IMG/VR virus record: IMGVR_UViG_3300031413_000624
DNA length: 64,000 nucleotides
Strand: one strand, 5' to 3'
From: a virus
Part shown: positions 229-57,847 of the stretch, piece after piece
Numbering within the stretch: the first letter of the stretch is position 1
Layout of the letters: each line of letters opens with the position of its first letter
Made by a program: the position numbers and the translations under genes
Notes under the pieces: model-generated
The model's input: only the letters and a program-made list of their open reading frames with translations
Told to the model about the DNA's origin: nothing
Databases searched by the model: none

Positions 229-434
229 GGTTATCCTTTCAGTTGGTGGTAATTGACTGAAAAGATAAATTTGTTATTACATGTCGTTTATTGTAGCACT
301 TTCTGTAAGGACTCGTCAAGAGTCATCCAAAAGTATCGGCAAGAATTCTTGAAACTTAGTACAGTGCAAGCTTTCTCTCCTGAAAAAGATTCTTGCGATA
401 CGATAGATAAAGTACACGTCAAAGGAGAACTGAC

Positions 435-1290: not shown

Positions 1291-1320
1291 TCAGAACTTT
1301 TGAGTTCTCTGATAGAATAG

Positions 1321-3455: not shown

Positions 3456-3498
3456 TAAAAATCCCGATAGTTGCGTATATTCTCAACTATCGGGATTT
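3456..3498. terminator. hairpin terminator for the upstream minus-strand gene
   Basis: aaaaatcccgatagttg / caactatcgggattt inverted repeat. Confidence 0.55.
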
Positions 3499-4138: not shown

Positions 4139-4194
4139 GTTGCTCCTATCGGATGTTTTTCGGTATGTCTATAAAGCTATGGTATCATACTTAC

Positions 4195-9568: not shown

Positions 9569-9579
9569 TGTGAGCTACA

Positions 9580-10525: not shown

Positions 10526-10535
10526 CCGATAGAAT
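10526..10535 (+). promoter_or_regulatory. CCGATAGAAT -10-like promoter element (leaderless rnhA)
   Basis: TAGAAT at 10530-10535, ATG at 10542 (6-nt gap). Confidence 0.45.
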
Positions 10536-11066: not shown

Positions 11067-11860
11067 ATTCTACAATCGTATCCTACAACATTCAAATCCC
11101 AGCAGCAAAAGAGGAGCTACATCCTTGGGCTGGGAGAAAGCATGAAGTGCTGGAATGCTTACCTCTTCTTGGCGACCTCATAGGTTTACAAGAAGTAGAT
11201 TACAATACTTCACAAGGACGTGAAGTATCTGAACGTCTCGCGGAGGCTGGATTTAGTAGTTTTCAACCAGGATACGGTGATTCAGAGTACACGGATGAGT
11301 ACCATACTCGTATTCCTGTGTTTTGGAAGAAAGAGCATTTCAAACTGATTCGCCAGGAAGTGCGAATGCTGACAACAGGAACAGTTGAGCAGCAAAAGTT
11401 GCTACCAAACATTGAAGCTCGGTATACTACATATGTACAGCTTGAATGCAAAGGGACACCGTTGCATTTCTTCAACCTGCATCAACAGCATGTCCCTATG
11501 GAGCTGTCCGATCAGAAACTTATTACAGGGTATCAAGCTGTCCAAAGTGCAGGGCTTCAATCCTTACATGACTTCATTCGGGAACTCAATCCAAATGGGG
11601 ATAGAACATTCGTTGTTGGTGACTTCAACGCTACTGATCCTCATGTGAATGGTTATCAAGACGCTTACCGTGTTGCACAGCATACTGAGCATTCAGAATA
11701 CAACAGCTACCATGGATATCAACCAAGCGGCGGCAGCGAAGGCGGGTACATCATCGACCATGTGCTTACAAACCTCACTCAGGCGAACGTGTTGAATGCT
11801 GAGACACTTATACAAGAAAGAGGCAGTGACCACTACCCGATAAGAGTCACCGTTACCTGA
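11063..11860 (+). CDS. endonuclease/exonuclease/phosphatase (EEP) family protein
   Basis: C-terminal SDHYPIRV motif typical of the EEP fold; ATGA overlap with rnhA. Confidence 0.7.
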   Translation: MNSTIVSYNIQIPAAKEELHPWAGRKHEVLECLPLLGDLIGLQEVDYNTSQGREVSERLAEAGFSSFQPGYGDSEYTDEYHTRIPVFWKKEHFKLIRQEVRMLTTGTVEQQKLLPNIEARYTTYVQLECKGTPLHFFNLHQQHVPMELSDQKLITGYQAVQSAGLQSLHDFIRELNPNGDRTFVVGDFNATDPHVNGYQDAYRVAQHTEHSEYNSYHGYQPSGGSEGGYIIDHVLTNLTQANVLNAETLIQERGSDHYPIRVTVT

Positions 11861-12601: not shown

Positions 12602-12602
12602 A

Positions 12603-14394: not shown

Positions 14395-14522
14395 TTTCAA
14401 AATACCTTATTTTCCCTGGTCAGAATGGGTTTAAGTACTCCATTTTATTGTAAAATGTCAGTACTTCATGATACAATTATGTAGTAACAAACACACAAAC
14501 AGACAACGTTGGAGATAGTATT

Positions 14523-16074: not shown

Positions 16075-16132
16075 CGTTTCGTATCCTTTTTCACATGCGT
16101 TTCGTAACTTCTTCTTCGTTAGATATATCAGC

Positions 16133-17371: not shown

Positions 17372-17372
17372 A

Positions 17373-17657
17373 TCATCGGTGAAGTAGGTAGTACGCTGCT
17401 AAAACGATAATTCCAATAGCATTCAAAGACATCAGCCCGTATCCAATGTATTTCGCTGGACGGGCTGATGTCTTTTGGTATGACCAGCTGGATAGCGTTA
17501 TGAGAAGAGCCATCAGGAAGCCCGCTCCGCTGATGATCCATTCCTGGGTAGAGAATCCTACAATGGTGAAGAAAAGAAGCGCATCAGCGTAGAGGAAGCT
17601 TACCCAGTATAAGGTTCTGTCAGGTTTGACTGTTTCTACTTCCTTTACTGTATTCAT
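17373..17657 (-). CDS. small membrane protein, uncertain
   Basis: ORF with TM helices; contains an internal hairpin at 17427-17475. Confidence 0.3.
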   Translation of the reverse strand: MNTVKEVETVKPDRTLYWVSFLYADALLFFTIVGFSTQEWIISGAGFLMALLITLSSWSYQKTSARPAKYIGYGLMSLNAIGIIVLAAYYLLHR

Positions 17658-17695
17658 GTAAGTATTAATCGGCTAATTTTGAAAAAGGGGTCAAT

Positions 17696-17716
17696 TTATC
17701 GTCGTTATGACGATAA
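17696..17716. promoter_or_regulatory. palindromic operator-like site TTATCGTC-N5-GACGATAA
   Basis: Perfect 8-bp arms; a TAGAAT hexamer 7 nt downstream (17723-17728); start of the NAD operon. Confidence 0.45.
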
Positions 17717-17763
17717 ACATGTTAGAATATCCTCAGAAGATAATAACAAAGGACACCTTCCTC

Positions 17764-18717
17764 ATGAAAGTATACAACGACACAGTTGTAATGACTGACT
17801 CCCTGATCCGCATGCTTGATGGATATCGCGCTGAACGAGGTTTTAACGCCTCAGAATGGGTTGAGCGTAAAGTTGCTCTCATCAACGCTTACTTCGCGCA
17901 GAGCGGCCTGTCAGGGGCTGTTGTAGGGGTTTCAGGAGGTATTGACTCCGCTGTTGCTCTTTCTCTTGTCGTGAAAGCATCACAGGTGGAAGACAGTCCA
18001 ATCAAGAAGATTGTTCCGATTCTTCTCCCCGCATTTTCCTACACAGGAGCTACCCGTCAGAACGAAGCTACAAACCGAGCAGAAAGCCTGTGCACAAAAC
18101 TTGGACTCGAAGCAGTCATCTTCCATCAGCTCACACCAATGGCTGAAATGATGAATGCAGAATTAGAGAACGTTTTGGGAATTCGGGCAACCCCTTGGGC
18201 TAAAGGCCAGTTAGTTGCATACACCCGAACCCCAATCCTGTACAGCACCTGCTCCATTCTCACGGACGCAGGATATCCAGCCTTAGTCATTGGAACTACA
18301 AATCTGTCAGAAGGTGGATACTTAGGTTATGTCGGTAAAGCCGCTGATGGCATGGTTGACTTACAGGTAGTGAGTGACTTGTACAAATCAGAAGTGTACC
18401 AAGTTGCGGAACTGCTAGAAGTACCAAACCTCATTATGAAAGCAACGCCAACAGGAGACATGTTTGACGGTCGGGATGACGAAACAGTGTTCGGAGCTTC
18501 CTACGACTTCGTGGAACTCTATCACCTCTGGCTGCAAAATGGCTCCGACCCTGAACTTCTGAAAGATGAAACATTCGCAGCAGGAGCGGCGAACCTTGAA
18601 AAGATGCACGCTTACAATGGTCATAAATATCTGTACGGTACACCATCAGTTCATTTGGATATCCTTCGTGCAGACATTCCTGGTGGTTGGAATAACAAAG
18701 CTTGGAGCGCTAAATAA
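17764..18717 (+). CDS. PP-loop ATP pyrophosphatase (NadE-like)
   Basis: SGGIDSAV PP-loop motif; AAAGGA RBS before 17764. Confidence 0.6.
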   Translation: MKVYNDTVVMTDSLIRMLDGYRAERGFNASEWVERKVALINAYFAQSGLSGAVVGVSGGIDSAVALSLVVKASQVEDSPIKKIVPILLPAFSYTGATRQNEATNRAESLCTKLGLEAVIFHQLTPMAEMMNAELENVLGIRATPWAKGQLVAYTRTPILYSTCSILTDAGYPALVIGTTNLSEGGYLGYVGKAADGMVDLQVVSDLYKSEVYQVAELLEVPNLIMKATPTGDMFDGRDDETVFGASYDFVELYHLWLQNGSDPELLKDETFAAGAANLEKMHAYNGHKYLYGTPSVHLDILRADIPGGWNNKAWSAK

Positions 18718-19457
18718 TGGCGACCAAATTTGTCAACCAAATTGACTTCACTATTCCAGCTATCCAACATGAAGTTGAAGTGGAGCCACTTCCTGAGTTA
18801 GACCGTTCAGCAGTGGTTATCCCTAACCTTATCCCAAGCAAAGAACGAGTTCATATCCTCCAAGAACTCAGTAAAGCGAACTGGCAGCCAGTATCCATCA
18901 CTGGAATGTCAGGTAACTGGAAGCCAGGGGATGAAATTGGGTCTTACCGAGCCTCAAACTACACACCAGAATACGCCACTGTATTATGGGACAGAATCAA
19001 ACACGCTTTCCCAACGGTTCGAGTGTTCAATCAGGAAGACAATACTGATTTTGATGACCATGAACTCTGGGAACCTGTTGGAGTTTCTCCACTGCTTCGT
19101 TTCATCAAATACGAAGATGGAGGCTGGCTTGTTGTTCACTATGACGCTCCATATGTTGAAGATGAGGACACTAGGACACTACAAAGCTTTGTTATCTACT
19201 TAGAACAGAGTCCCACGATTGCAGGTGGAGCAACTCGATACCTGCGAGACCCGCAAGCAGGGATTCCTATTGCTCAACGTATTTTAGATGACCAGAAACG
19301 TGCAGCAACCGAGGATGAAGTCCGGCTTCGTTTCACCCCTGAAAATGGAACAGGTGTCATCTTTGACCACAGACTTCTTCACGATGCTGCGCTCGTTCAG
19401 GGCGAAGGTCACAAAATTATTATCCGTACCGACATTATGTACAGGAAAGTCCGATGA
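18717..19457 (+). CDS. 2OG-Fe(II) oxygenase superfamily protein
   Basis: HYDAP (HxD) ... DHRLLH facial-triad arrangement; start/stop overlap with neighbours. Confidence 0.5.
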   Translation: MATKFVNQIDFTIPAIQHEVEVEPLPELDRSAVVIPNLIPSKERVHILQELSKANWQPVSITGMSGNWKPGDEIGSYRASNYTPEYATVLWDRIKHAFPTVRVFNQEDNTDFDDHELWEPVGVSPLLRFIKYEDGGWLVVHYDAPYVEDEDTRTLQSFVIYLEQSPTIAGGATRYLRDPQAGIPIAQRILDDQKRAATEDEVRLRFTPENGTGVIFDHRLLHDAALVQGEGHKIIIRTDIMYRKVR

Positions 19458-20965
19458 AAACAGACCGCTATTTTGATGCGTTATACGAACGCACTCACAG
19501 TGAACAGGATTTAACAACAGCTGGTTGGTTAGAAAAGCCAACACAAGTGAACCAGCAGTTACGGTATTACACAACGCCAGTTGATGCTATCCGTGATGCA
19601 GGCAAGGAAGAAGTCTCTGTTCTGTTTTACCCAGGATGTTTCGCCCCAGTGCATGAAGGTCATATCACTGCAATGCGCTTAGCCAAGGAAGCTGTCGAAG
19701 CGACAGGCGAAACAGTGGTAGCTGGTTTCTTCACACCAGACCATGATGACTACATTATGCGTAAAACGCATGATGAACGTTTCACAGCAGCGAACCGGGT
19801 AGAGCTTCTACATGCAGTAACTAAAACAGAAACATGGATGCAGGTAGACCCTTGGGCTGCTCAGTATGCTCCTACTGATTTGAACTTCACCACATTGTAT
19901 GATCGTTTGAATCAATACCTCAAACGTTGGGTACCAAATGTCAAAGTAAAGCTCTACATGGTGTTTGGTGGAGACAACTACATGTTCGCTAATGCTTTCA
20001 CTGAATATGGGTATGGGGTTTGCGTTCCTCGTGAAGGAGTTTCTATTGACTGGACCACAGTCCATCCTGATGCTCAAAAGCGTGTAGTTCTCAGTACGAA
20101 AAGCAGCACAAATCATTCATCCACAGCGGCCCGAGCAATGTACTCAAACCCTGCTGAAAAAGGTGGTCGGAGTACGATGGGTAAGCGCTACGTCCTTCGC
20201 AACGATTTAGATGCAGCATTTGAGAACACTACGGAGTACCCGAATTATCTTATCGCTCAGACTCTGCAGATTCTCTTCCACTCACATCTTCCAGAGGATA
20301 TCAGTGTCCAAACAGTTGATATTCATGACCAGTTCCAGCATCATCAGGAAAAAGCTGGGATCATTTCAATGGATTCATTTTGGAAAGCTGAATACAATCT
20401 TGACATTACCAGACTCTTCAATGCAGCCGGTGGCCAGAATCATCCATTACGGTACATCAACCGCCCAGGTTCCGATGATTTGCAAACACAAATCAAACGA
20501 ATCCCAGAAGGTGAATATGTACTTGCAGATGACGACATCGCTACTGGTGAAACCATGAAATTTGTTTCCAATGTGTTAGGCACTCACGGCATCAGAATTG
20601 TGGACACTCTAAGTCTTATCGATGAACTCAACACTGACCTGTACGATTTAGCTGACATGAGAGACTATGTGTTAGGGGCAAAGAATGGTGGGTTGACCGT
20701 TGTTGCTCCAAACGGTCAAGTGACACGAATGCCGTACTTTGCTTCCTATGTGAACGTTTCAGCAAGAACACGTATTCAGCCTAATAAAGCTCGCAGTTTC
20801 TCTATTGAAATTTGGAAGCTCAATCGCTCTTTGTACAAGAACAGTAGCCTTACCGTAGGAGACATCAAAGAGCATCAAGATTTCACCCTCTTTGGGTTCT
20901 CAGAGCAGATGCGGCTTGTTGAATTATGTGAGAAGCATTTAGAGCTGTTAGGTGTGCAAAGCTGA
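19454..20965 (+). CDS. nucleotidyltransferase (NMNAT-like, HxGH) fused to a type I phosphoribosyltransferase domain
   Basis: PVHEGH motif N-terminal; VLADDDIATGETM PRPP-binding motif C-terminal. Confidence 0.6.
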   Translation: MKTDRYFDALYERTHSEQDLTTAGWLEKPTQVNQQLRYYTTPVDAIRDAGKEEVSVLFYPGCFAPVHEGHITAMRLAKEAVEATGETVVAGFFTPDHDDYIMRKTHDERFTAANRVELLHAVTKTETWMQVDPWAAQYAPTDLNFTTLYDRLNQYLKRWVPNVKVKLYMVFGGDNYMFANAFTEYGYGVCVPREGVSIDWTTVHPDAQKRVVLSTKSSTNHSSTAARAMYSNPAEKGGRSTMGKRYVLRNDLDAAFENTTEYPNYLIAQTLQILFHSHLPEDISVQTVDIHDQFQHHQEKAGIISMDSFWKAEYNLDITRLFNAAGGQNHPLRYINRPGSDDLQTQIKRIPEGEYVLADDDIATGETMKFVSNVLGTHGIRIVDTLSLIDELNTDLYDLADMRDYVLGAKNGGLTVVAPNGQVTRMPYFASYVNVSARTRIQPNKARSFSIEIWKLNRSLYKNSSLTVGDIKEHQDFTLFGFSEQMRLVELCEKHLELLGVQS

Positions 20966-20982
20966 TACGATAGAACTTACTT

Positions 20983-22247: not shown

Positions 22248-22347
22248 CGCTAAATTGGTCCATTGCCGATAGACTGGGTAAGCATGTACTCATGTCTGCC
22301 CTGGCAGTAAACCAGTTTATTCTATTTAGACAGTAAGGAAAACCCTC

Positions 22348-23604: not shown

Positions 23605-23607
23605 TGA

Positions 23608-23652
23608 GTAAAGGCGGGTCAGAGTAAACATATACTCTGACCCGCCTTTACT
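23608..23652. terminator. bidirectional intrinsic terminator
   Basis: gtaaaggcgggtcagagta / tactctgacccgcctttac 19-bp perfect stem. Confidence 0.7.
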
Positions 23653-23660
23653 TTCATTTG

Positions 23661-24146: not shown

Positions 24147-24258
24147 AATTTTCTCTCTTATCTCTCAATGAAGTGTTCTGTAACACGAACAAACACCACT
24201 ATACAAAACCCCACTGACATTTGTCAAGCTTGAGATAACAAGATGATATAGTGGGCCT

Positions 24259-25128: not shown

Positions 25129-25974
25129 ATGACCACTTTACAGAAGCACATCATTGAAACCCTCGGAGTGAAAGCGAAAGTCAACCCAGAGGAAGAGTTC
25201 CGCACTCGTGTAGACTTCCTCAAAGCTTTCACTAAAAATGCAGGAACACGTGGATTCGTCCTCGGGATCAGTGGAGGGCAGGATAGTGCTCTGGCTGGAT
25301 ACGTTGCTCAGACAGCTGTTCGTGAACTCCGTGATGAAACAGGCAAAGACTATGAATTCCTTGCCCTGCTCCTTCCATACGGTACACAGCGGGACGGGGA
25401 TGAAGCAGTAACCATCGCAAAAGACTTTATCAAAGCCGACCAGGTAATTGAATACAACATCAAAGACACTGTAGACGCTTTCGCAAACACCTTCAACACT
25501 ATTGCAGATGCTGACCCTGCAAACGGTGACAACCTTGCCGACTACCACAAAGGTAACGTCAAAGCACGTGTTCGCGCCATCACACAGTACGCATATGCTG
25601 GACAGCGACAGCTTCTGGTTGTTGGGACCGACCATGCAGCAGAAGCTGTCAGCGGCTTTTTCACGAAGTTCGGAGATGGTGCTGCTGACATTCTCCCTCT
25701 TAGCGGTTTGAACAAACGCCAGGGAAAAGAAGTGCTTCGCTTCCTGGGTGCTCCTGAGTTTGTTATCACTAAGGCTCCTACTGCTGACCTTTTGGACACT
25801 AACGCAGGTCAGGCTGATGAGACTGAACTTGGCATCACCTACGATGTGCTGGATGACTACCTTGAAGGCAAGACTGTCGCAGAAGCTGCTCAGCAGAAGA
25901 TTGAACTTCGTTACCTGGTGACTGAACACAAGCGTCAGCAGCCTGTTGACCCTTTTGCTGACTGGTGGAAGTAA
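25129..25974 (+). CDS. nadE: NH3-dependent NAD+ synthetase
   Basis: [12 protein letters not shown]-loop; length and overall pattern of NadE. Confidence 0.85.
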
Positions 25975-27213: not shown

Positions 27214-27627
27214 TTACGCGTTATCCCAGTTCTGAACAGCTTTTTTGTCAGTCACACGACGTTCGTGGCGCTTTTGTTCTTTCCCTGAACGGTCTGTGCA
27301 CATCCAACATCCACACAAACCATGTCCTGTGTAGGCGAAGTGCCAACGGCAGGTCAAATCGCGCCATTCCTTGTTCGTCAACTTCAACTGGTCAGTAGGA
27401 GACTCAGGTAATGTGCATTCACCATTAGCGTGATCGTGGTCAGCTGTAGCTCCGACTCCTTTATCAGACTTGTCAGCCATTCTTACTTCAATAGGGCGTG
27501 TTTTTCTTGTACGACTCATAGTATTTATCTTATCGGAAAAAAGAAGCTCAGCGAAGAAACAAAACGTTGAGAACATTTGTTTACATAAATGACACACTCG
27601 GAAGCAACTGAGTTTGAGTTTCATCAC
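27214..27627 (-). CDS. Cys-rich small protein, uncertain
   Basis: ORF with many Cys/His. Confidence 0.35.
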   Translation of the reverse strand: MMKLKLSCFRVCHLCKQMFSTFCFFAELLFSDKINTMSRTRKTRPIEVRMADKSDKGVGATADHDHANGECTLPESPTDQLKLTNKEWRDLTCRWHFAYTGHGLCGCWMCTDRSGKEQKRHERRVTDKKAVQNWDNA

Positions 27628-40731: not shown

Positions 40732-40961
40732 TGAGTATACTCCTTCATACAGATGGGCACGGTTCGTTCTGGCAAGAGTTTATCTCAATTGCTACGGACC
40801 CTGCCCATCTGTTATTCGAGCTGATCTTCTCAGTATTATTTGATGTAGTATTAGTCTCAGTCATTTGGGGTGTCATCATCAAGAAAATCATTATCCCCAA
40901 ATTAAAACGCGATGTTCATCGTGAAATTGATGCTGAACATGGGTTGAAGCCTCACGATTGA
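40728..40961 (+). CDS. small membrane protein
   Basis: ORF with one TM helix. Confidence 0.35.
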   Translation: MMSILLHTDGHGSFWQEFISIATDPAHLLFELIFSVLFDVVLVSVIWGVIIKKIIIPKLKRDVHREIDAEHGLKPHD

Positions 40962-42400
40962 TGAGCAGCTTTACTTCGTATAATTCCCCAGATGAATAAA
41001 CCTGTGGCAGTAACAGTGAGCAACAATCCAGTTACTGTAATAGCGGAATGGAATTGCAAATGGATGAGGGTACTTTCCATGGCTTTTCCAGTGAATACGT
41101 TAGCTGGGATGAAAGCAGATAAGATAGCTCCGGCTACTGTAATGCTTACAGCTGCACATATCTGTGAAATGGTATCAACCAGCGCCGAGCCTGTTGATGT
41201 GTGAGTATGGGGCAGTCCTCGGAAAACACTCATACCAGCAACTAAACCATTCACACGCACTCCTGCTGCGATGAGGATAAGGGATACCGCGATCCAGCCA
41301 TAGCTGATAGGGCTACCGAACGTGTAAACCAGCATGCCTACGATAATGGATAGCCCACTGTATAAAGAAGCTTTTTGATTACCGAAACGTTCTACTATTT
41401 TGTTGACCAGTGGACCAACAGCCAGCAACGTAATCACTTGTGGGAGTAGCCCTAATGCAGCGAGTACTGGACTCCAATGATAATCCAGTTGCAGTTGTAA
41501 CATCACAACATAGCCCAGTCCAGCTGTAATGATGCTGGTGCTTGCTTTGTACAGCAATCCACTAGAAACTAATGGTAGTCTCAAAAGACTAAATGGGATT
41601 AGAGGGTTTTGAGATTTTTTCTCTTGCTTTACGAAAAAGGCTCCAAATAACACTGCGCTTGCTGTGAGACTCCAGAATTCCCATGAGATAGCACCATACT
41701 GTGCAGCAGCGTCAAGGAGTAGCAAAACTGATACGATTGCTAATGTGCCAAAGGTACCTCCAGCTACATCTAAGGGCTTCCGAATACTTTTTTGATTTCG
41801 CCATTCAGGAAGGCTGAGATATAAACTGAGGAATGCTACAGCTGCAATAGGAATGTTGACCAGTATCAGAAACTCCCATGATGCAACTGCTAACACAGCC
41901 CCGCCAATAGTTGGTCCGATGCTCAGTCCGACCAACCCGACTGTTGAGATGAAAGTCATCGCCCGCATTTGCAGCGATTCACTATTGAACAGCTTGAAGG
42001 TTAGCGACAAAGTAAGAGGAGTTGTCATTGCTGCGGCTAAGCCCATCAGCGCCCTCACCGCTATCAGTTCATAGATGTTCGTGACATCTAAGACTAATAA
42101 GCTTGACACTCCGAGAAGTGCTAACCCACTCAGCATGAGCTTTTTGGGGCTGAATTGGTCAGCGATAGACCCGAATAACAGCATAAGACTTCCGAAGATG
42201 ACAGAGTAGGCACTAGTAGCGAGACTTAATGAGGAGGTAGAAGCATTGAGAGTTTTCCCAATAGTCGGTAACGCTACTGTCAATACTGAATTATCAAGCA
42301 TTTCAAACAGGAACACGATGGATAACCCTGTAAGAGCAAGCCAGTTCTGTTTGAGAGATTGGGGTTGTTCCACAATAAAATGTTTTTGGAGACGGTTCAT
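40952..42400 (-). CDS. MFS transporter, 14-TM DHA2-type
   Basis: MFS motif LDNSVLTVALPTI; 482 aa, about 14 TM helices. Confidence 0.8.
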   Translation of the reverse strand: MNRLQKHFIVEQPQSLKQNWLALTGLSIVFLFEMLDNSVLTVALPTIGKTLNASTSSLSLATSAYSVIFGSLMLLFGSIADQFSPKKLMLSGLALLGVSSLLVLDVTNIYELIAVRALMGLAAAMTTPLTLSLTFKLFNSESLQMRAMTFISTVGLVGLSIGPTIGGAVLAVASWEFLILVNIPIAAVAFLSLYLSLPEWRNQKSIRKPLDVAGGTFGTLAIVSVLLLLDAAAQYGAISWEFWSLTASAVLFGAFFVKQEKKSQNPLIPFSLLRLPLVSSGLLYKASTSIITAGLGYVVMLQLQLDYHWSPVLAALGLLPQVITLLAVGPLVNKIVERFGNQKASLYSGLSIIVGMLVYTFGSPISYGWIAVSLILIAAGVRVNGLVAGMSVFRGLPHTHTSTGSALVDTISQICAAVSITVAGAILSAFIPANVFTGKAMESTLIHLQFHSAITVTGLLLTVTATGLFIWGIIRSKAAHQS

Positions 42401-42529
42401 TAGTATGCACCTTAGAAATTTTGTAAGGTGACAGAAATACTTTGACCGTGTACGTGGATGTGCTTTTTCTTCACATCTTTTTACCTTGTAGTTATTATTC
42501 TAACATGAATAGTGAAGAGAAATGTAATA

Positions 42530-42551
42530 CGCGTGAAAAACGCGTGAAAAA
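42530..42551. repeat. tandem 11-bp direct repeat cgcgtgaaaaa x2
   Basis: Seen in the divergent promoter region between the MFS gene and 42619. Confidence 0.5.
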
Positions 42552-42618
42552 CACAACCTTTGGTTTATATTTTTACCGATAATATTAGCACTTTTAGCAG
42601 TGTCGTAAGGGGAAGCGT

Positions 42619-44025
42619 ATGATTGCTAAGCTTATTAAATCGTCACGAGGTGCTATTGACCTGGCCTCTATACTCGTAGCGGTCATTATTGTTGGCCTTA
42701 TTTCTGGTGTTGTTTCTGTTAGCGTCTTTGCTGTCATTCCATGGACTCATGATAACGCCGCTAAGACTCATCTTGGCTCTATCGCTGTAGCGCAAGCTTC
42801 TTACAAAGGAGCCTATGAAAAATACGGGGACTATAAAGAATTAGTCAAAGAAGAGCTTCTTCCTGTACGAGAAAAAACTTGCTCAGTTACTTCAAACCAA
42901 GGTAGAACCTATACCTCAGCCACACAATCACCTACAGGTAAAGTCTTCATCAATACGAATACTGTTTCTCAGCCATGGCAAGCAGCGGTCGGTGAAACTA
43001 CCTGTTTAGGGACAGTGAAAGAAAACAACGAATTAGAGCCACTGCCACCAGCTACTGAACCAACTCCTACGGTTCCAACGGTAACTCCGAAACCAGGTAC
43101 GGAAAGCAGTTTTACACTGCGTTGCGATAAAACAACTTCAATGCTTTTACCAACAGCATCAGTAAATGCATCAGCGCAATGGAGTGATGGTGTGGAACAG
43201 TCCGCGACAACGGGTTCGTTCAATCAACGAACACTTGCCGCAGGCGTGACCTATAAAGTTACGATTACTGGGACGTTTGGGGTGCTGAGTATGCTTCCCC
43301 TGAATATTGACCAAAAGAATTGTGTTCGGTCGATGGATTTATGGGGTTCTGCCAGTGCTACTGTTGTAGCTGATTATGCTTTTGCCGGGGCTAATAATTT
43401 GACTTCTATCCCTCAGAACATTCCAGCAACAGTCACCTCAGTAGCGGGTATGTTCCAATCTAATAAGACATTCAATCAGGATTTGAGTACATGGGATACT
43501 GCAAACATCAAAAATATGAGCAATATGTTCAATGACTCAATATACACGAAGTCATTGAATAGTTGGAACGTTTCTAATGCTACAAATCTCAGTTTTATGT
43601 TTGCAAGTTCCTCCTACAACCAACCATTAGATAATTGGAAAACGGCTAATGTTCTTAGCATGGAGGGGATGTTCCAGAACAATCTTGTGTTCAATCAAAA
43701 TATTTCCAGCTGGAATACCACAAATTTGACTTCCACTGCATCTATGTTTGCAGGAGCTAAACTGTTCAATCAGCCATTGAACACTTGGACCGTGAATAAT
43801 GTTGTCAATATGAATAGCATGTTCAAAAATGCTACAAGCTTCAATCAGCCATTGAACAACTGGAATACATCTAAGGTGACAAACGTCAGTGGTATGTTCT
43901 TGAATGCCTCATCATTTAGTCAAAATCTTAGTGGATGGAAACTCCCTAATATTCTTGTATTCCTTGATTTTGCTCTGGGAAGTAAACTCAACATACTTCA
44001 ATTACCAAAACTGCCAATCTTATAG
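42619..44025 (+). CDS. surface protein with pilin-like N-terminal anchor and six tandem DUF285/BspA-like 26-aa repeats
   Basis: N-terminal hydrophobic helix; FNQ-L-W-T-N-MF repeats x6. Confidence 0.55.
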   Translation: MIAKLIKSSRGAIDLASILVAVIIVGLISGVVSVSVFAVIPWTHDNAAKTHLGSIAVAQASYKGAYEKYGDYKELVKEELLPVREKTCSVTSNQGRTYTSATQSPTGKVFINTNTVSQPWQAAVGETTCLGTVKENNELEPLPPATEPTPTVPTVTPKPGTESSFTLRCDKTTSMLLPTASVNASAQWSDGVEQSATTGSFNQRTLAAGVTYKVTITGTFGVLSMLPLNIDQKNCVRSMDLWGSASATVVADYAFAGANNLTSIPQNIPATVTSVAGMFQSNKTFNQDLSTWDTANIKNMSNMFNDSIYTKSLNSWNVSNATNLSFMFASSSYNQPLDNWKTANVLSMEGMFQNNLVFNQNISSWNTTNLTSTASMFAGAKLFNQPLNTWTVNNVVNMNSMFKNATSFNQPLNNWNTSKVTNVSGMFLNASSFSQNLSGWKLPNILVFLDFALGSKLNILQLPKLPIL

Positions 44026-44035
44026 AAATTTAATT

Positions 44036-44062
44036 CTCTGCCCCCAGTAGGAGGGGGCAGAG
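44036..44062. terminator. GC hairpin
   Basis: ctctgccccc / gggggcagag. Confidence 0.5.
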
Positions 44063-44146
44063 TGTCATTATCTTATGTCGTGCCCGATACTCCAAATATG
44101 TGAGCTTCCCTCTATTTTCACTTATCCTTGAAAGGACCCGAGCACC

Positions 44147-45268
44147 ATGGATAGTGTACCATCCCCAGTTAAAACAATTTCATTAGTATTTCAAAGTTCC
44201 CGCGCTGCCATAGACTTAGCCTCCATCATGGTTGGTGTCATCATCATTGGCCTTATTGGTAGTGTCATTGGCGCAACGGTTTTTGCAGTCATTCCCTGGG
44301 CGCAGGACAATGCAGCCCGAGCCTCCCTTTCCCAAGTCCGAACAGCAGAAGATGCTCAAAGAGGACTCAAAGAAAAATATGCTGGGCATGAAGCACTCAG
44401 CGATAATGGATTTTTACAAAGCCAACCAGGTCTAGCTGTTCGCACTAACGACGCTGGTACCTGCTATGTTGGCGTTATTGTTTCAGCAACAGGAAACATG
44501 TTCTGGACTTCGGACAAAACAGGCATAGCTGCTTATAAGAGCACAGCGCTACCAACCAGTCCTTGCTTAGATGTCACAGGACCAGGTAACTTAGCTGCTG
44601 TAACTTCACCTACTACTGGTGGGACAGCTGCTTCTATTGCTTCGAAAGTTACAGAAGACGGTGCTGGAAGTTATGAAACAAACGGTTCAGGCGGTTCTTC
44701 AACCTCATTATCTGGTCGTGCATGGTATGCCTACTATCGTGGCTCTTTCAACGAAAAGCAAAATGCTTCTCTTCCCTTACTCAAACAGCTTACTGGAGAA
44801 CAAGTAACACCAACAACATCAGCTCAGCATACAAACTTGTGGCTCAACGTCTACCACGTTCATGCTTATGCTGATGGCAAAGAACTGAAAGTATCCGGAG
44901 ATAATGATGCAGTAGACCATCCATACACAGGGTTTGACATCAATATTTCTTACGATAAAATCAATAACACCATTTTGTATTACTTCCATAACAACGCAGG
45001 GACTTCTGTGATTGGTGATAATAGCGATGCAACTATGACCAGGTTATGGAAAAATGGCTATGTTACATTTGAAGTGCCAGGATACACAGGAACAAACGTA
45101 TTGCATTTCAATGCTCAAAACCCTCGTTCATCTGACCCAAGTAACACTAACCGTCTTTCCGATTGGACAGGAACACTTAAGTGCGGTGAGGGATACGGTA
45201 ATGATAATAACTGTGCAAGTTTGAGCAGTTACGGATACAACTGGCAGAGCATTATTCCTAAATCCTAA
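44147..45268 (+). CDS. secreted/anchored protein, paralogous N-terminus to the 42619 product
   Basis: AIDLASIMVGVIIIGLIGSV... about 60% identical to the N-terminus of the upstream gene. Confidence 0.5.
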   Translation: MDSVPSPVKTISLVFQSSRAAIDLASIMVGVIIIGLIGSVIGATVFAVIPWAQDNAARASLSQVRTAEDAQRGLKEKYAGHEALSDNGFLQSQPGLAVRTNDAGTCYVGVIVSATGNMFWTSDKTGIAAYKSTALPTSPCLDVTGPGNLAAVTSPTTGGTAASIASKVTEDGAGSYETNGSGGSSTSLSGRAWYAYYRGSFNEKQNASLPLLKQLTGEQVTPTTSAQHTNLWLNVYHVHAYADGKELKVSGDNDAVDHPYTGFDINISYDKINNTILYYFHNNAGTSVIGDNSDATMTRLWKNGYVTFEVPGYTGTNVLHFNAQNPRSSDPSNTNRLSDWTGTLKCGEGYGNDNNCASLSSYGYNWQSIIPKS

Positions 45269-45274
45269 GCATCT

Positions 45275-45335
45275 CAGCATGTCTTCACTATACTTGACAA
45301 CTCCAATAACTCTGTGGTATAGTGAAGACATGCTG
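45275..45335. promoter_or_regulatory. 18-bp perfect inverted repeat enclosing a TTGACA-N18-TATAGT promoter
   Basis: cagcatgtcttcactata ... tatagtgaagacatgctg; -35 at 45294-45299, -10 at 45318-45323. Confidence 0.55.
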
Positions 45336-45457: not shown

Positions 45458-46066
45458 TTGGAACAGTACCCTTCAATTGATAAGATTATTCGCAATACTC
45501 ACATCTATGCTTACGATAAGTTAGATGGCTCCAACATTCGTGCTGAGTGGACTCGTAAGACTGGGTTCACAAAATTCGGTTCCCGCCGTCAGCTCATTGA
45601 CGAAAGTCACAGTTTGCTGGGTGAAGCTATCCCGTTGTTTAACGACAAATATGCAGATGCCTTAGATGAAATTTTCAGAAAGCAGAAATATCAGAAAGCA
45701 ACAGCATTCTTTGAGTTCTATGGGGAGAACAGCTTCGCAGGATTCCATGAAGATGAGCCTCACGATGTGACACTTTTCGATGTACATATTTATAAGCAAG
45801 GTCTGATGTCACCTCAGGAGTTTAACAAGGTCTTTAAACACGTTGATACCGCGCCCTTGCTTTTTCAAGGGAAGCCAACTGCTGAGTTTGTTGAGTCTGT
45901 GCAGGCAGGCACCTTAGAAGGCATGACCTTTGAGGGTGTTGTCTGCAAAGCAGGTTATGATAATCGGAACAAGTTAGCTTCATTCAAAATCAAGAATAAA
46001 GCTTGGTTAACTCGCTTGAAAGATAAGTGTGGGAATGATGAGAAAATGTTCACCGCGTTAGCATAA
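45458..46066 (+). CDS. small KxDG nucleotidyltransferase (RNA/DNA ligase-like)
   Basis: YDKLDGSNIRAEW motif I; 202 aa. Confidence 0.5.
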   Translation: MEQYPSIDKIIRNTHIYAYDKLDGSNIRAEWTRKTGFTKFGSRRQLIDESHSLLGEAIPLFNDKYADALDEIFRKQKYQKATAFFEFYGENSFAGFHEDEPHDVTLFDVHIYKQGLMSPQEFNKVFKHVDTAPLLFQGKPTAEFVESVQAGTLEGMTFEGVVCKAGYDNRNKLASFKIKNKAWLTRLKDKCGNDEKMFTALA

Positions 46067-46082
46067 AGTTGCTGTGTGAAAA

Positions 46083-46120
46083 GAACCCCTTAGCCAGAGC
46101 TAAGGGGTTCTTTTCTTCTT
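46083..46120 (+). terminator. intrinsic terminator with T-tract
   Basis: gaacccctta...taaggggttc followed by ttttcttctttt. Confidence 0.7.
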
Positions 46121-46165
46121 TTACTACTGATAGTATATAGATGGGACATAGAAGAAGGAAACCCA

Positions 46166-47605
46166 ATGTGTAGAAATAAAGAAGAAGGCGGTCGCCGCTG
46201 TACCGATCACAATGCATTCGGACAGCAGATCAGAAACCTTCAAGCGAAAAAGCAGTATCATGCAAAATATGGTCACACTGACAAAGTAACTTCGGTTGTT
46301 GAAGAAATGGATGCTCTTCGTGACAAGAAGCAGCATCTCTTAGAAGATGGAGGAACTGTTCTTCCATACACGATGCCATTGACCCCGAATGCGGAAAGAG
46401 TCCTCAACCAGCTCCGTGAAGACGGGTATGAGCCTTATGTTGTTGGAGGAAGTGTTCGTGACGCTCTTCTCGGATTAGACTCAAAGGATGTTGACATTGA
46501 AGTCTATAAAGCTACACCAGAAGAAGTCATTGCTTCCCTTCGTAAAATTGGTCAAGTGGATGAAGTGGGTAAATCATTTGGTGTCTTGAAAATCCAAATT
46601 GGGGGAGAAGACTTTGATGTCTCTCTTCCTCGTAAAGACTCTAAAATTGGTGACGGACACAGAGGGTTCACTGTTGAAGTAACTCCTGAACTCTCACTCC
46701 ATGAAGCAACTGCTCGTCGTGATTTCACCATCAATGCTCTCATGTATGACAACGAAATGGGATTCATCGTTGACAAGCACGGTGGTTTGAAAGATTTGGA
46801 GAAAGGTCATCTCCGTCATGTTTCAGAAGCTTTTGATGAGGACCCACTCCGTGTTCTTCGTGGAGTACAGATGGCTTCACGTTTTGATATGGAACTCCAC
46901 CCAGACACAGTAGTCAAAGCTCAAACACTGAAAGACCAGTTCGGTGATTTGGCTCGAGAGCGAGTCCAAACTGAATTCCAGAAGCTGTACCAGAAAGGTA
47001 AAGCTCCTCACAAAGCGTTCAAGCTTTTGCAGGATACAGGTTGGGACGCAAACTTCTCTGGTGTTGCAGAAGTGAATGGAAAATCTCTGCGTCGTAATCT
47101 GCAAAGAACTCAGGAGTTGACTGACCAAGGAGTCATCCCTAAGGAGAAAGGTGCATACATCCTTTCAGCGAACATTGCATCTCATCTGAATGATAAAGAT
47201 GCAAGAAACTTCTTGACATACACTACTGTTGGTGATGATTTGAAGAACAAGTCATACAACCTTTCTCGTGTTGAGCTACCAGTGAAGCAAGGAAAAGCTT
47301 CTTTGCGAGCATGGGCAAAAGGCATGCCTCGCCACGTCACCATTCAAGACTGGGTTTTACTCAGTAAAGCCAAAGGTGACAAGGAAGTAGCAGAGCGTAT
47401 TGAACGCAAAGCAGAAAAACTTGGCATTTTGCACAGCCCTGAATCTGACATGGTATCAGGAGATGATGTACTTGCTGCTTTCCCTGAACGTAAACCAGGT
47501 CGTTGGATGAAAGAAGCCTTAGATGCAACTCGTAACGCTCAGTACTCTGATGTGTTCCGTGACCGCGAAAAAGGTATTGCCTGGGTCAAAGCAAACATTA
47601 GCTGA
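46166..47605 (+). CDS. cca: CCA-adding tRNA nucleotidyltransferase with N-terminal Cys-His motif
   Basis: GGSVRDALLGLDSKDVDIEV polymerase-beta motif; RRDFTINAL; N-terminal MCRNKEEGGRRCTDH. Confidence 0.8.
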   Translation: MCRNKEEGGRRCTDHNAFGQQIRNLQAKKQYHAKYGHTDKVTSVVEEMDALRDKKQHLLEDGGTVLPYTMPLTPNAERVLNQLREDGYEPYVVGGSVRDALLGLDSKDVDIEVYKATPEEVIASLRKIGQVDEVGKSFGVLKIQIGGEDFDVSLPRKDSKIGDGHRGFTVEVTPELSLHEATARRDFTINALMYDNEMGFIVDKHGGLKDLEKGHLRHVSEAFDEDPLRVLRGVQMASRFDMELHPDTVVKAQTLKDQFGDLARERVQTEFQKLYQKGKAPHKAFKLLQDTGWDANFSGVAEVNGKSLRRNLQRTQELTDQGVIPKEKGAYILSANIASHLNDKDARNFLTYTTVGDDLKNKSYNLSRVELPVKQGKASLRAWAKGMPRHVTIQDWVLLSKAKGDKEVAERIERKAEKLGILHSPESDMVSGDDVLAAFPERKPGRWMKEALDATRNAQYSDVFRDREKGIAWVKANIS

Positions 47606-47690
47606 CCTAAAAGAATGAACACATGTGGGAGCAACTAAAGCTATACAGTTGCTCCCACATGTGTTATAGTAGAGTTTTCTATAAGAAAGA

Positions 47691-48179: not shown

Positions 48180-48196
48180 TCCGTTAGATATAATGC

Positions 48197-49012: not shown

Positions 49013-49051
49013 AAGCTTTTACCATAGCTTATTCCGATAGAATGAGCTGAC

Positions 49052-50512
49052 ATGAGTATCCAGAATTCAGCAGCCGTTAAAACCAGAGTGCTTTCCTTAT
49101 GGGAGCAGCCTCGTTTCTTTGTTGGCCTCATCCTTATTCTCATTACTTCATTCAGCTTGATCCGAGCCAGTTATTTCCCTGAAACAGATGTGTTATGGGG
49201 AGCCCGTAATGGGGAAGAACTTGTCAAAAATGGGTTTCATGTTTACATTGCAGATACTTGGAATCTTACAACATTAGGACGAGTCTGGTCGCCAAATTCC
49301 TGGCTATGGAATGTTATTCTATTCCTCTTTTACCATGCGTTCGGAACTATAGGGTTTGTGATCCTCACTGCCATCACAAATTTCTTAACATACCTGTTTA
49401 TTTTTCTGACAACCAGAAAGCTCAAAGTTCCAGCTACCTGGCAGTTCCTCATTCTCATAGCTTCATGGATTGTGTTGACTGCATATATGAACGGTAGATC
49501 AAACGCCGCAGACGTGTTGATCCTGACAGGGTTTGTCTATCTGTCTTCTTTCTTACGCTTCAAAAACCCATTCATTACAGCATCCAGCATTATCGTAGGT
49601 TCTTTCCTCATCCAAGTACTGTGGCTGAATATCCATCTGACTGCAATATTAGGGTTAGTACTTCTTCCTGCTATCACATTTATTCTACAAAAAGGCAAGC
49701 CTTTCTGGAATAAGGCAGGCTTGGCAGTAGCTTCGCTTATTGGAACCGCGTCAGCTATGCTAGTTTCTCCTTTTGGGTTAGAAGGATTAGCGAAGACTCT
49801 GCAGACTCGAAACGAGTCAGTGAACTTCTTTGTAGAATGGTCCAACATTTTCTATACAGGAGAGCCGAACTGGCCAGTTATTATCATGCTGCTCATCGGA
49901 GTTGGGTTGAGTGTATACCTCTTTACTCAGAAACAGTATCTTGTTGTAGCACTGTTTGCTGTGTTTATTTATGAATCGTACACCGCTATTCGGTTTGCTC
50001 CGTACCTGCTGGTTCTCTCATTAGCTTGTCTTGTCTACATCAAACGATGGAGTGAACCGAAATGGTTTAGTTTGTTGAAGTTTGTAGGCATTGTCATCTC
50101 AGTGATTATTATGGTGGTTGCGTTGGGTGTTGGGGCAAAAGCTGTTATTAACCCGAATAGTACTGTACCTGTGAATCCTATCCTTTTCAAGGAAATCCCA
50201 CAGAATGCTCATGTTGCAACAACGTGGCGTTCCAGTGCTGAACTTATTTTGTACCGCCCTGATACGAAAATCATTATTGACGGTAGGAATGATTTCATTG
50301 GGAAGAAGCAGTATAAAGAAGCAAATGATGTTTTCGCAAAGACAAGCACATTATACATCAAGAATTGGTTCGCCAAGTATGACATTGATACTGTTTTCGT
50401 ACCTGACTCTTCTTTGCCTGAGTACGAGAATATCATCAAACAGATGAAGAAACTTGGTTGGTCTGAACACCAGTATCAGCAATCAGTTACTTTTGTCGAA
50501 GTAAGCAAGTAA
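49052..50512 (+). CDS. polytopic membrane protein (possible GT-C-like glycosyltransferase)
   Basis: About 12 TM helices; TAGAAT 8 nt before the ATG. Confidence 0.5.
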   Translation: MSIQNSAAVKTRVLSLWEQPRFFVGLILILITSFSLIRASYFPETDVLWGARNGEELVKNGFHVYIADTWNLTTLGRVWSPNSWLWNVILFLFYHAFGTIGFVILTAITNFLTYLFIFLTTRKLKVPATWQFLILIASWIVLTAYMNGRSNAADVLILTGFVYLSSFLRFKNPFITASSIIVGSFLIQVLWLNIHLTAILGLVLLPAITFILQKGKPFWNKAGLAVASLIGTASAMLVSPFGLEGLAKTLQTRNESVNFFVEWSNIFYTGEPNWPVIIMLLIGVGLSVYLFTQKQYLVVALFAVFIYESYTAIRFAPYLLVLSLACLVYIKRWSEPKWFSLLKFVGIVISVIIMVVALGVGAKAVINPNSTVPVNPILFKEIPQNAHVATTWRSSAELILYRPDTKIIIDGRNDFIGKKQYKEANDVFAKTSTLYIKNWFAKYDIDTVFVPDSSLPEYENIIKQMKKLGWSEHQYQQSVTFVEVSK

Positions 50513-50559
50513 ACCCTCTAAAAATCAATGGTTGTGGGTCCGATAGGGATAAGTATAGC

Positions 50560-52425: not shown

Positions 52426-52502
52426 AGCATTTTCTGTAAAAGGACCAAAGTACACGCTTTACTTGATAGCTATAAAGCAAGCTAAACCCAGAAGGAAAAT
52501 AC

Positions 52503-56180: not shown

Positions 56181-56232
56181 GAGAGAAGACTACCAAACTG
56201 TTGATGTTTAGAGGATTTTGAGAACTTTAATT

Positions 56233-56249: not shown

Positions 56250-56346
56250 CTGAAAAACTTGCCGATACTCTTTAAGAGTGATACACTAAGAACATAACGA
56301 ACGGGGTTACTTGAACGCCCGAGAAAAACAACAAGGAGCAAAAATT

Positions 56347-57191: not shown

Positions 57192-57779
57192 ATGACAAAG
57201 GGTTTGCTTATCGTTGACGTGCAGAACGATTTTATTGAAGGGGGTAGCCTGGCAGTCGCAGGAGGAGAGAAAGTCGCTCTAACGCTTGCAGAGCACCTCC
57301 TGGATGCTGATTACCATGCGCTCATCACCACTCAGGACTGGCACATTGAGCCTGGAAACCATTGGGCAGAAACTCCCGACTATGTGGACACCTGGCCTGT
57401 GCATTGCGCTGCAAACACTGCTGGTGCATCGGTACGCCCTGAGCTGGCGGCTGCCATTGTTTCCAAGGTCAGCGAACAGCGAAGCCTTCGGTATTTGCGC
57501 ATCGTCAAGGGTGAGTATGAAGCAGCTTACTCAGGTTTTGAAGGCCGCGACTTTCTTGGAGGGAATGAGAAGGTTCCTACCCTTATCCGTGAGCTTGGTG
57601 TAGATGAACTGGACATTGTAGGACTGGCGACAGACCATTGTGTTCGCGCTACTGTTCTGGACGCTCTGAAAGCGGGATTCAAGGTAAACGTCCTCACCGA
57701 CTATGTTGCAGGTGTCGACCCTGAGCGCTCCAAAGCAGCTCTTGCTGAAATGGAAACAGCAGGCGCAACTCTCGTCTAA
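57192..57779 (+). CDS. pncA: isochorismatase-family hydrolase, nicotinamidase (PncA)-like
   Basis: LLIVDVQNDF; catalytic GLATDHCV. Confidence 0.7.
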   Translation: MTKGLLIVDVQNDFIEGGSLAVAGGEKVALTLAEHLLDADYHALITTQDWHIEPGNHWAETPDYVDTWPVHCAANTAGASVRPELAAAIVSKVSEQRSLRYLRIVKGEYEAAYSGFEGRDFLGGNEKVPTLIRELGVDELDIVGLATDHCVRATVLDALKAGFKVNVLTDYVAGVDPERSKAALAEMETAGATLV

Positions 57780-57847
57780 ATCAAGATAACGAAGAAGCTG
57801 ACTGGCATGAAATACGCCAGTCAGCTTCTTCGCGTTAGGAATGAATT

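Follow-up and report, generated by a model that had tools for sequence, protein, structure and literature searches.

Within a 64,000-nt stretch of DNA from the IMG/VR virus record IMGVR_UViG_3300031413_000624 (below, the window), a short motif, (C)YG(A/T)TAG and often then nnAT, recurs between genes, points towards the gene that follows and stands at a fixed distance from many start codons. The motif is real, conserved and under selection. We think it likely that it is a clade-specific promoter that gives leaderless transcripts where it abuts a start codon and transcripts with a Shine-Dalgarno leader where it lies 25-110 nt upstream of one. A sequence-only reading of the window had noted a -10-like (C)CGATAG(A)AT element just before several ATG codons. 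Every copy it listed was found, including the looser ones at 22266, 46126/46128, 50539/50540, 58694/58695 and 58958.

Placement of the motif

By bare count the motif does not stand out. CGATAGAAT with at most one mismatch has 10 matches in the window against 10.8 expected, which is at chance, and the 20 matches of CCGATA are not above chance either (12.6 +/- 3.8 expected). The distribution of those matches is another matter. Sixteen of the 20 are intergenic and 4 are coding, so CCGATA is not as frequent inside genes as between them. In a test that used no start-codon information, CCGATA was the 6-mer most enriched in intergenic DNA, which makes up 10.4% of the window (about 35-fold, p~6e-13), and the 6-mers ranked next were CGATAG, TATAGA and ATAGAA. 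CCGATA is depleted in coding DNA, where about 11 copies would be expected, and is depleted on the antisense strand of genes as well. Thirteen of the 16 intergenic copies aim at a start codon on the same strand 14-117 nt downstream.

The distance to the start codon is also fixed for many copies. When gene starts were taken as the first ATG following an in-frame stop, 11 of the 66 genes had TAG at precisely 12 nt upstream of the ATG, where about 1 would be expected (p=4e-9; 2e-7 after Bonferroni correction). At any other offset it was found in at most 4 of the 66, and the in-frame positions -3, -6, -9, -15 and -18 showed no peak. Likewise, TAG-N9-ATG opens open reading frames (ORFs) of at least 80 aa 13 times, compared with 1-5 times for each other spacing from 3 to 15. 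With the A of the start codon as +1, the motif reads G at -14, A or T (W) at -13, T at -12, A at -11 and G at -10. The gap between hexamer and start codon is 6 nt at 11 sites, 7 nt at 3 and 8 nt at 1. Since the TAG 12 nt upstream is in frame, a longer ORF is ruled out at such sites.

Many of the start-proximal copies belong to a variant, (C)GTTAGnnA-T, found before the starts at 16133, 32385, 34439, 38971 (minus strand), 39829, 48197 and 57848. The consensus given above combines this variant with the CCGATA form. A home-made expectation-maximisation (EM) motif finder was not used as evidence: unseeded, it converged on the purine-rich Shine-Dalgarno sequence, and seeded, it degenerated (gamma to 0.9) and took in weak A/T-rich sites.

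Conservation in relatives

Syntenic metagenomic contigs were obtained through homologs of the gene at 49052 and of an amidoligase gene. In these relatives (L001, L002 and so on in the table) CCGATA is again intergenic and sense-oriented, according to independent JGI and ENA gene calls, and the motif is kept in orthologous intergenic regions at only 40-86% protein identity. It occurs in relatives of 782 and 582 kb too. The first T of TAG stands 12 nt before the ATG there as well, and the spacing is kept while the sequence of the spacer changes. Before the GNAT and HD orthologs, GTTAG-N9-ATG is kept at 40-45% protein identity, and the orthologous region in L001 carries ttCCGATAGAATgagctgtcATG amid changed surroundings.

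Copies farther from their genes are conserved in the same manner. AACCGATAG sits about 35 nt before the PolyA_pol orthologs. Upstream of the window's own poly(A) polymerase gene (ATG 46166) the order is terminator, motif, GGGACATAGA, Shine-Dalgarno and ATG. In the alignment of that region across relatives (A1), the hairpin varies in sequence and keeps its structure, and is followed by an invariant C-GATAG and by the same remaining elements. In the alignment of the region upstream of the amidoligase gene (A2), GATAGCTATAAAG is invariant. The GATAG core stays unchanged in both alignments, and the hairpin ahead of it alters in sequence but not in structure.

The comparison with the 858-kb relative (L015; 82% coding nucleotide identity) puts a number on this. 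Motif cores are 96.2% identical between the two and other intergenic DNA 85.3% (p=0.0025). The only changes in the cores are C-T exchanges at their first position (-15), and the G two bases before TA (-14) is fully conserved.

Two further observations come from the same alignments. Between 45269 and 64000, intergenic DNA is 85.9% identical to L015 and coding DNA 82.3%; this excess suggests that the short intergenic regions are densely constrained by regulation. The leader of the poly(A) polymerase gene (46137-46165) holds GGGACATAGA, which is conserved in all four lineages of A1 despite diverging surroundings; it could be either a regulatory element in the RNA or the initial transcribed sequence.

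Promoter-like features

The sequence-only reading had found no conserved -35 to accompany the motif, and we agree: across 29 anchored sites, information is at most 0.3 bit at every position from -45 to -1. Matches to generic sigma-70 -35/-10 promoters are not enriched over shuffles. The G at -14 is invariant in the aligned sites. A T at -15 occurs only in a minority of copies (1309, 24244, 46128 and 52464), and most have C.

What lies upstream of the motif is consistent with a new transcript beginning there. Perfect hairpins of 17-21 bp (z -5 to -10 for the four hairpins folded) end 15-22 nt before the ATGs at 57848 and 63660. In the space that remains, only a promoter with virtually no leader would fit. 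The canonical terminator at 46078-46115, which has a T-run, ends 12 nt upstream of the 46128 copy. In the first genes past strand switches (34439 and 38971 on the minus strand) the motif stands at -12. Being intergenic, directed at genes, placed after terminator-like hairpins and conserved amid diverging flanks, the motif gives good support to the proposal of a genome-specific promoter class that lacks a -35.

Long perfect intergenic hairpins of 17-21 bp are a feature of the window in their own right (23606-23653, 33309-33350, 35490-35528, 46078-46115, 47618-47665, 57789-57833 and 63591-63638). Several lack a clear U-tract on the coding strand. Possible roles of these hairpins are termination, cleavage by RNase III and stabilisation of RNA 3' ends.

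The window also holds good canonical intergenic promoters of the form TTGAC(A/G)-N17/18-TAnnnT, most of them TG-extended, at 319-290(-), 6196-6168(-), 24227-24198(-), 14448-14477(+), 45294-45323(+), 31433-31461(+) and 36295-36323(+). Because these coexist with the CCGATAG type, the replicon would have at least two promoter classes. The canonical class and the CCGATAG type may act at different stages of the replication cycle.

Start codons and leaderless geometry

At its first four sites, the earlier reading had put the hexamer 6-8 nt before the ATG. This holds at 10542 (6 nt), 49052 (8 nt) and 63660 (7 nt), and the gap is 6 nt at 20983 too. It fails at 1309-1318, which lies 2 nt from ATG 1321; there the gap is 8 nt only relative to a second in-frame ATG, at 1327. 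In the published signature of leaderless genes, the first T of a TANNNT box lies about 12 bp upstream of the start codon, the gap is 6-7 bp, and such genes coexist with a second class that uses Shine-Dalgarno sequences (PMC3160421, PMC12340547). About 15-17 start-proximal genes in the window have this geometry and would be transcribed without a leader.

Predicted pairing with the anti-Shine-Dalgarno sequence is near zero at 10542, 20983, 48197, 32385, 39829 and 63660, so the absence of Shine-Dalgarno sequences reported for the core sites is borne out. Clear AAGGA or AGGAG sites precede other genes of the window. The claim that the motif marks leaderless genes has to be widened, since about half of the copies stand 25-110 nt ahead of genes that have a Shine-Dalgarno sequence themselves (about 14 genes). 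For this reason the motif looks like a general promoter and not only a marker of leaderless genes, and the same point speaks against a translation signal.

Three of the motif-adjacent ATGs are confirmed as true starts by evidence from the encoded proteins. In orthologs of the GNAT protein (48197) an N-terminal Cys-rich domain is conserved from Met1, the N-termini of homologs agree with a start at 49052, and the product of 63660 begins MRKTIIRSVLAITAGSALLFSLSSC, a signal peptide with a lipobox. The automated gene calls of the ENA contig bypass such ATGs for internal ones (48329 instead of 48197, and 63756 instead of 63660), which costs the GNAT protein 44 conserved N-terminal residues and the lipoprotein its signal peptide. 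For the Rnl1-like gene, the motif predicts a start at 16133 instead of 16058.

Proposed mechanism and points that weigh against it

On our reading, (C)YG(A/T)TAG(nnAT) would be the core of a clade-specific, -35-free promoter built like an extended -10. RNA polymerase would open the DNA at TA and begin transcription about 7 nt past the hexamer. Where the motif is 6-8 nt from an ATG (about 15-17 genes), the transcript would begin at or within a few nucleotides of the AUG and be translated leaderless; where it is 25-110 nt upstream (about 14 genes), the transcript would have an ordinary leader carrying a Shine-Dalgarno sequence. The promoter role, the position of the transcription start and leaderless translation are all things that we infer from sequence and position. 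Candidate readers would be the host sigma-A holoenzyme, possibly modified by a replicon factor (compare Thermus phage P23-45), a replicon sigma factor or a replicon polymerase.

Several observations count against this reading. The last T of a sigma-70 -10 hexamer is normally almost invariant. At the CCGATA sites the sixth-position T is present in about 14 of 29 (0.3 bit); the GTTAG class mostly has A as its sixth base and a conserved T one position further downstream. The conserved core of 6-7 bp is short for a stand-alone promoter. CGTTAG alone is common inside genes; position is therefore all that defines the GTTAG class, which may be a different element from CCGATA. Start-proximal motif genes do pair more weakly with the anti-Shine-Dalgarno sequence (median dG -1.7 vs -3.4 kcal/mol, p=0.03), a contrast that is only modestly significant, and a Fisher test on strong Shine-Dalgarno sequences is not significant (p=0.26). 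The TAGGAG and TAGGAA sites (4138 on the minus strand, 57192 and 57848) could serve as weak Shine-Dalgarno sequences. Many start-proximal sites are 17-20 nt past the stop codon of the upstream gene, and translational coupling is possible there. Finally, Pfam and PHROG hits in the window include no sigma factor or RNA polymerase, and split beta/beta' genes were likewise not seen there.

Alternative explanations

The motif might instead act in RNA, as a processing site for an endoribonuclease (perhaps RNase III at the hairpins) or as a ribosome-recruiting element other than Shine-Dalgarno. The strictly fixed distance to the ATG would suit this, as would the perfect 17-21 bp stems without a clear U-tract that adjoin several copies and look like RNase III substrates, the abundance of RNA-processing and RNA-repair genes in the window, and the purine-rich, partly Shine-Dalgarno-like bases past TAG (TAGGAA, TAGAGA, TAGGAG). 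We nevertheless hold a signal in RNA to be improbable: a cue for start distance makes no sense for the half of the copies that lie 25-110 nt from genes with good Shine-Dalgarno sequences, most sites at -12 have no anti-Shine-Dalgarno complementarity, the motif occurs past strand switches and past the terminator at 46078-46115, where a new transcript must begin, and its YGnTA sequence and geometry match known -10 elements. A site for a replicon-encoded repressor or activator that overlaps various promoters, and is not itself recognised by polymerase, is also unlikely. The short core of 6-7 bp with flanks devoid of information is what one would expect of such a site, the minus-strand copy at 339 lies upstream of a canonical TTGACG-N18-TACAAT promoter, and one pair of copies is palindromic (3462-3493). 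Against this, the sites are single, strongly directional and not dyad-symmetric, their register to the ATG matches the -10 position exactly, and the start-proximal cases offer no other promoter-like element, with hairpins ending 15-22 nt before the ATG.

Two further explanations have very little to recommend them. The heptamer CGTTAGA is identical to the -35 consensus of SPO1 late promoters (PMC3601020), so the motif could be the -35 half of a bipartite promoter, CGTTAGA-N17-19-GATATT. The window has 3 loose matches to the bipartite form, all coding and none at a motif site; the start-proximal CGTTAG sites have no GATATT-like sequence 17-19 nt further downstream, and transcription would begin about 25 nt inside the ORFs, all of which makes this reading scarcely credible. 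It is just as hard to believe that the motif is a by-product of base composition and of the way ORFs are defined, with A/T-rich, stop-containing words favoured between genes and an in-frame TAG defining the first ATG. It would fit with this that the 9-mer is no more numerous than chance predicts, that TAG, as a stop codon, should be somewhat depleted in the sense frame of genes, and that starts were defined as the first ATG past an in-frame stop. Yet CCGATA contains no stop codon and tops the enrichment, the antisense strand of genes is depleted too, other in-frame offsets have no TAG peak, the JGI and ENA gene calls in relatives give the same picture, and motif cores are more conserved than the intergenic DNA around them.

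Comparison with known systems

One of the closest likenesses to the proposed promoter is the -10 box of leaderless genes in Deinococcus-Thermus and Actinobacteria (Zheng et al. 2011, PMC3160421; Zhong et al. 2025, PMC12340547). Both have the first T at 12 nt and a gap of 6-7 nt, lack a Shine-Dalgarno sequence and a -35, coexist with a class of Shine-Dalgarno genes and mislead automated gene callers about gene starts. Unlike that box, the motif almost always has G as its third base, its sixth T is not invariant, it has a conserved 5' extension, (C)CG(A/T), and it serves leadered genes too. Its carrier also differs, being a giant mobile replicon of 45% GC and not a high-GC cellular genome.

The motif resembles an extended -10 (YG-W-TAG) without the invariant last T. 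Like the extended -10 promoters of Thermus phage P23-45 (PMC7403470), it does without a -35 and has an invariant G at -14; literal TGnTAnnnT copies occur at 1309, 24244, 46128 and 52464, and C and T interchange at -15 between orthologs. Like P23-45, the phage-like replicon also holds canonical -35/-10 promoters, which suggests a temporal switch. In contrast to those promoters, the motif mostly has C at -15 with an extra C before it, and its hexamer is TAGnnn rather than TATAAT. No factor like gp39 or gp76 of P23-45 was identified in the window.

Short phage promoters without a -35 are known from T4 (TATAAATA, late, gp55), AR9 (AACA-N6-TA/G) and phiKZ (TATG), the last two read by non-virion RNA polymerases (PMC5312081). 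The motif shares with them a very short element immediately upstream of the start site that is lineage-specific and repeated before many genes. None of the types that were tried fits. TATAAATA occurs once in the window, inside a gene, and no gp55-like gene was seen there; AACA-N6-TA/G is only 1.8-fold enriched in intergenic DNA; and a promoter for an extracytoplasmic function (ECF) sigma factor, GGAAC-N16/17-CGT, is at odds with the lack of conservation in the -35 region. AR9 leaders, moreover, are 26-491 nt long, unlike those of the start-proximal motif genes. The SPO1 late promoter, CGTTAGA-N17-19-GATATT, is read by the sigma factor gp33/34, and its heptamer is a -35 element, whereas the identical variant here lies at -15 to -9 from the ATG. 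A literature search turned up neither an account of this motif as a promoter nor any link between leaderless expression and huge phages.

The replicon that carries the motif

The window has 45% GC, is about 90% coding and has its genes mostly on the plus strand; a tRNA scan and an Rfam scan gave no matches. Its gene content (Pfam on about 60 ORFs, PHROGs on ten unannotated ORFs) resembles the auxiliary region of a very large phage. RNA-repair genes comprise two T4 Rnl1-type RNA ligases, a further RNA ligase, two PNKPs and a CCA-adding/poly(A) polymerase. NAD-related genes comprise two NAD synthases (NadE), a nucleotidyltransferase and a nicotinamidase. Others encode an ADP-ribosyltransferase, dCMP deaminase, NucS, RNase H, DNA methylases, GyrA/GyrB, Hsp70, a Clp ATPase and a 1015-aa KTSC-amidoligase protein. 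The density of RNA-repair and NAD-salvage genes is unusual (4533-6120, 11906-14088, 16058-20965, 25129-25974, 34439-35482, 45458-47605 and 57192-57779). The NucS/EndoMS homolog is at 11906-12601.

The KTSC-amidoligase protein is identical on contigs of 883,042 and 880,603 bp (the latter is L014, ENA ERZ27247428 k141_538707), and homologs lie on contigs of 858, 782 and 582 kb (L015, L011 and L012, L015 being the 858-kb one). This places the window in a replicon of about 0.88 Mb that was assembled twice independently and belongs to a clade of giant replicons. At about 880 kb it exceeds every described phage in size, the largest known phage genome being 735 kb according to a review of June 2026 (PMC13282480). 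Scans of IMG/VR with the 49052 protein, GyrA, Hsp70 and an amidoligase profile gave no relatives, and INPHARED gave no match by DNA search or by tblastn with the amidoligase or the ADP-ribosyltransferase. Neither IMG/VR nor the deposited phages include this clade. We call the replicon phage-like; no phage structural genes were seen in the stretches of it that were read.

An actinobacterial host, proposed earlier from the leaderless genes, is not established: GC content is 45%, the hints are weak and some features point elsewhere. In its favour are the NucS homolog and the protein encoded at 37490 (minus strand), whose best phage matches are Rhodococcus and Gordonia phages at 31% identity. The good TTGACA-N17/18-TGnTAnnnT promoters in the same window count against it. 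The best match in a genome collection, with the major facilitator superfamily (MFS) transporter as query, is a Bacillaceae metagenome-assembled genome at 28% identity, the CCA-adding enzyme matches jumbo phages of Proteobacteria, and NucS matches only gut metagenome phages and a haloarchaeal virus. The motif is absent from Gordonia phage Stormageddon (65% GC).

Table 1. Copies of the motif in the window. Rows down to 56187..56194 are start-proximal copies; the remaining rows are copies farther upstream. Distances run from the motif to the start codon unless noted.
Sequence	Position	Strand	Distance and start codon	Gene product	Remarks
CCGATAGAAT	49034..49043	+	8 nt to ATG 49052	486-aa membrane protein	site first flagged; leaderless-type; conserved in L001, L015
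CCGATAGAAT	10526..10535	+	6 nt to ATG 10542	RNase H	leaderless-type; no Shine-Dalgarno, dG +0.2
ACGATAGAAC	20967..20976	+	6 nt to ATG 20983	DUF4126	leaderless-type
CCGTTATAGAAT	63641..63652	+	7 nt to ATG 63660	lipoprotein	immediately after 21-bp hairpin
CTGATAGAAT	1309..1318	+	2 nt to ATG 1321; 8 nt to in-frame ATG 1327		TGnTAnnnT form
CGTTAGATA	48182..48190	+	6 nt to ATG 48197	GNAT	leaderless-type; orthologs have GTTAG at the same spacing
CGTTAGGAA	57833..57841	+	6 nt to ATG 57848		overlaps 3' end of 17-bp hairpin
CGTTAGTAA	39814..39822	+	6 nt to ATG 39829	HD-domain protein	spacing kept in L002 1125, L006 3141
CGTTAGAGA	34424..34432	+	6 nt to ATG 34439	PNKP	first gene past strand switch
GTTAGATAT	32371..32379	+	TAG 12 nt upstream of ATG 32385	ADP-ribosyltransferase	
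GGTTAGAAA	38978..38986	-	6 nt to ATG 38971		first gene of minus-strand unit
CGTTAGATA	16117..16125	+	7 nt to in-frame ATG 16133	Rnl1-like	predicted true start of gene listed as 16058-17371
CCGATAGGAG	4143..4152	-	4 nt to ATG 4138		ambiguous, reads also as Shine-Dalgarno AGGAG
CCGATAAGAT	27527..27536	-	7 nt to ATG 27519		ORF of ~101 aa, not in the gene set used
TGATATAGT	24244..24252	+	6 nt to ATG 24259		canonical extended -10
CGATAAAGA	59012..59020	+	6 nt to ATG 59027	gyrB	A replaces G; identical in L015
GGTAGTCT	56187..56194	-	6 nt to ATG 56180		weak variant
TGATAGTAT	46128..46136	+	29 nt to ATG 46166	CCA-adding/poly(A) polymerase	
TGATAGCTA	52464..52472	+	30 nt to ATG 52503	KTSC-amidoligase	Shine-Dalgarno present; alignment A2
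CCGATAATAT	42576..42585	+	33 nt to ATG 42619	DUF285	Shine-Dalgarno present
CCGATAGACT	22266..22275	+	72 nt to ATG 22348		Shine-Dalgarno present
CCGATACTCC	44084..44093	+	53 nt to ATG 44147		
CCGATAGGGA	50540..50549	+	10 nt to TTG 50560; 40 nt to ATG 50590	DNA methylase	conserved in L001, L015
CCGATACTCT	56262..56271	+	75 nt to ATG 56347		conserved in L002, L015
CCGATAGGAA	58695..58704	+			within 339-nt region upstream of gyrB
CCGATAGCTG	58958..58967	+	59 nt to ATG 59027	gyrB	
CGATAGATA	401..409	+	25 nt to ATG 435		Shine-Dalgarno present
CCGATACTTT	330..339	-	101 nt to ATG 228		upstream of canonical TTGACG-N18-TACAAT promoter
CCGATAGTTG	3484..3493	-	33 nt to ATG 3450		one arm of palindromic terminator-like hairpin
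CCGATAAGAG	11837..11846	+	59 nt to ATG 11906	NucS	in last codons of upstream gene
CCGATAATTT	37219..37228	-	107 nt to ATG 37111		

Other observations on the window and its relatives

The 339-nt region upstream of gyrB (58688-59026) differs hardly at all from its counterpart in the 858-kb relative. Four or five copies of the motif lie in it (58695, 58871 TGTTAGAGA, 58958 and 59012), along with a possible ORF of 26 codons (MMINERLF...). At 3462-3493, two inverted copies form the arms of a palindromic hairpin, CCCGATAGTTG...CAACTATCGGG, followed by a T-run on the minus strand. In L012 (1-15939), six tandem KTSC/amidoligase paralogs of about 900-1330 aa each are found, several of them preceded by CCGATAGACAT.

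The block at about 40952-45268 (the MFS transporter gene, on the minus strand and of atypical codon usage, a DUF285 repeat protein gene and a gene of 373 aa without known function) is missing from the otherwise collinear L015, which points to an insertion or a deletion. At 9566-9582, two divergent genes start 11 nt apart inside the palindrome CATTGTGAGCTACAATG, so each promoter must sit within the opposite gene. Similar overlapping divergent starts occur at 13186/13187.

Significance

Some of this was already known: a -10 box adjacent to an ORF gives leaderless mRNA, and phages have lineage-specific promoters without a -35. In all likelihood the motif represents a known promoter architecture in a lineage-specific form, and the replicon that carries it is the larger surprise. 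A -10-like element with G at -10 and a last T that is not invariant is biochemically unusual all the same. A bolder version, which we offer only tentatively and regard as rather doubtful, is that a replicon-encoded sigma-like factor or polymerase reads about 7 bp at -10 and that leaderless translation is a major mode conserved across the 0.58-0.88 Mb clade. If that were true, the motif would map the clade's transcription programme, correct gene starts and narrow the range of hosts.

In genomes of about 0.9 Mb made up mostly of genes of unknown function, a reliable promoter and start signal would improve annotation materially. The apparent presence of at least two promoter classes means that there is probably a temporal programme that could be read from the genome itself. 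Leaderless expression is strongly lineage-dependent in bacteria, and its prominence in this clade would therefore constrain the possible hosts.

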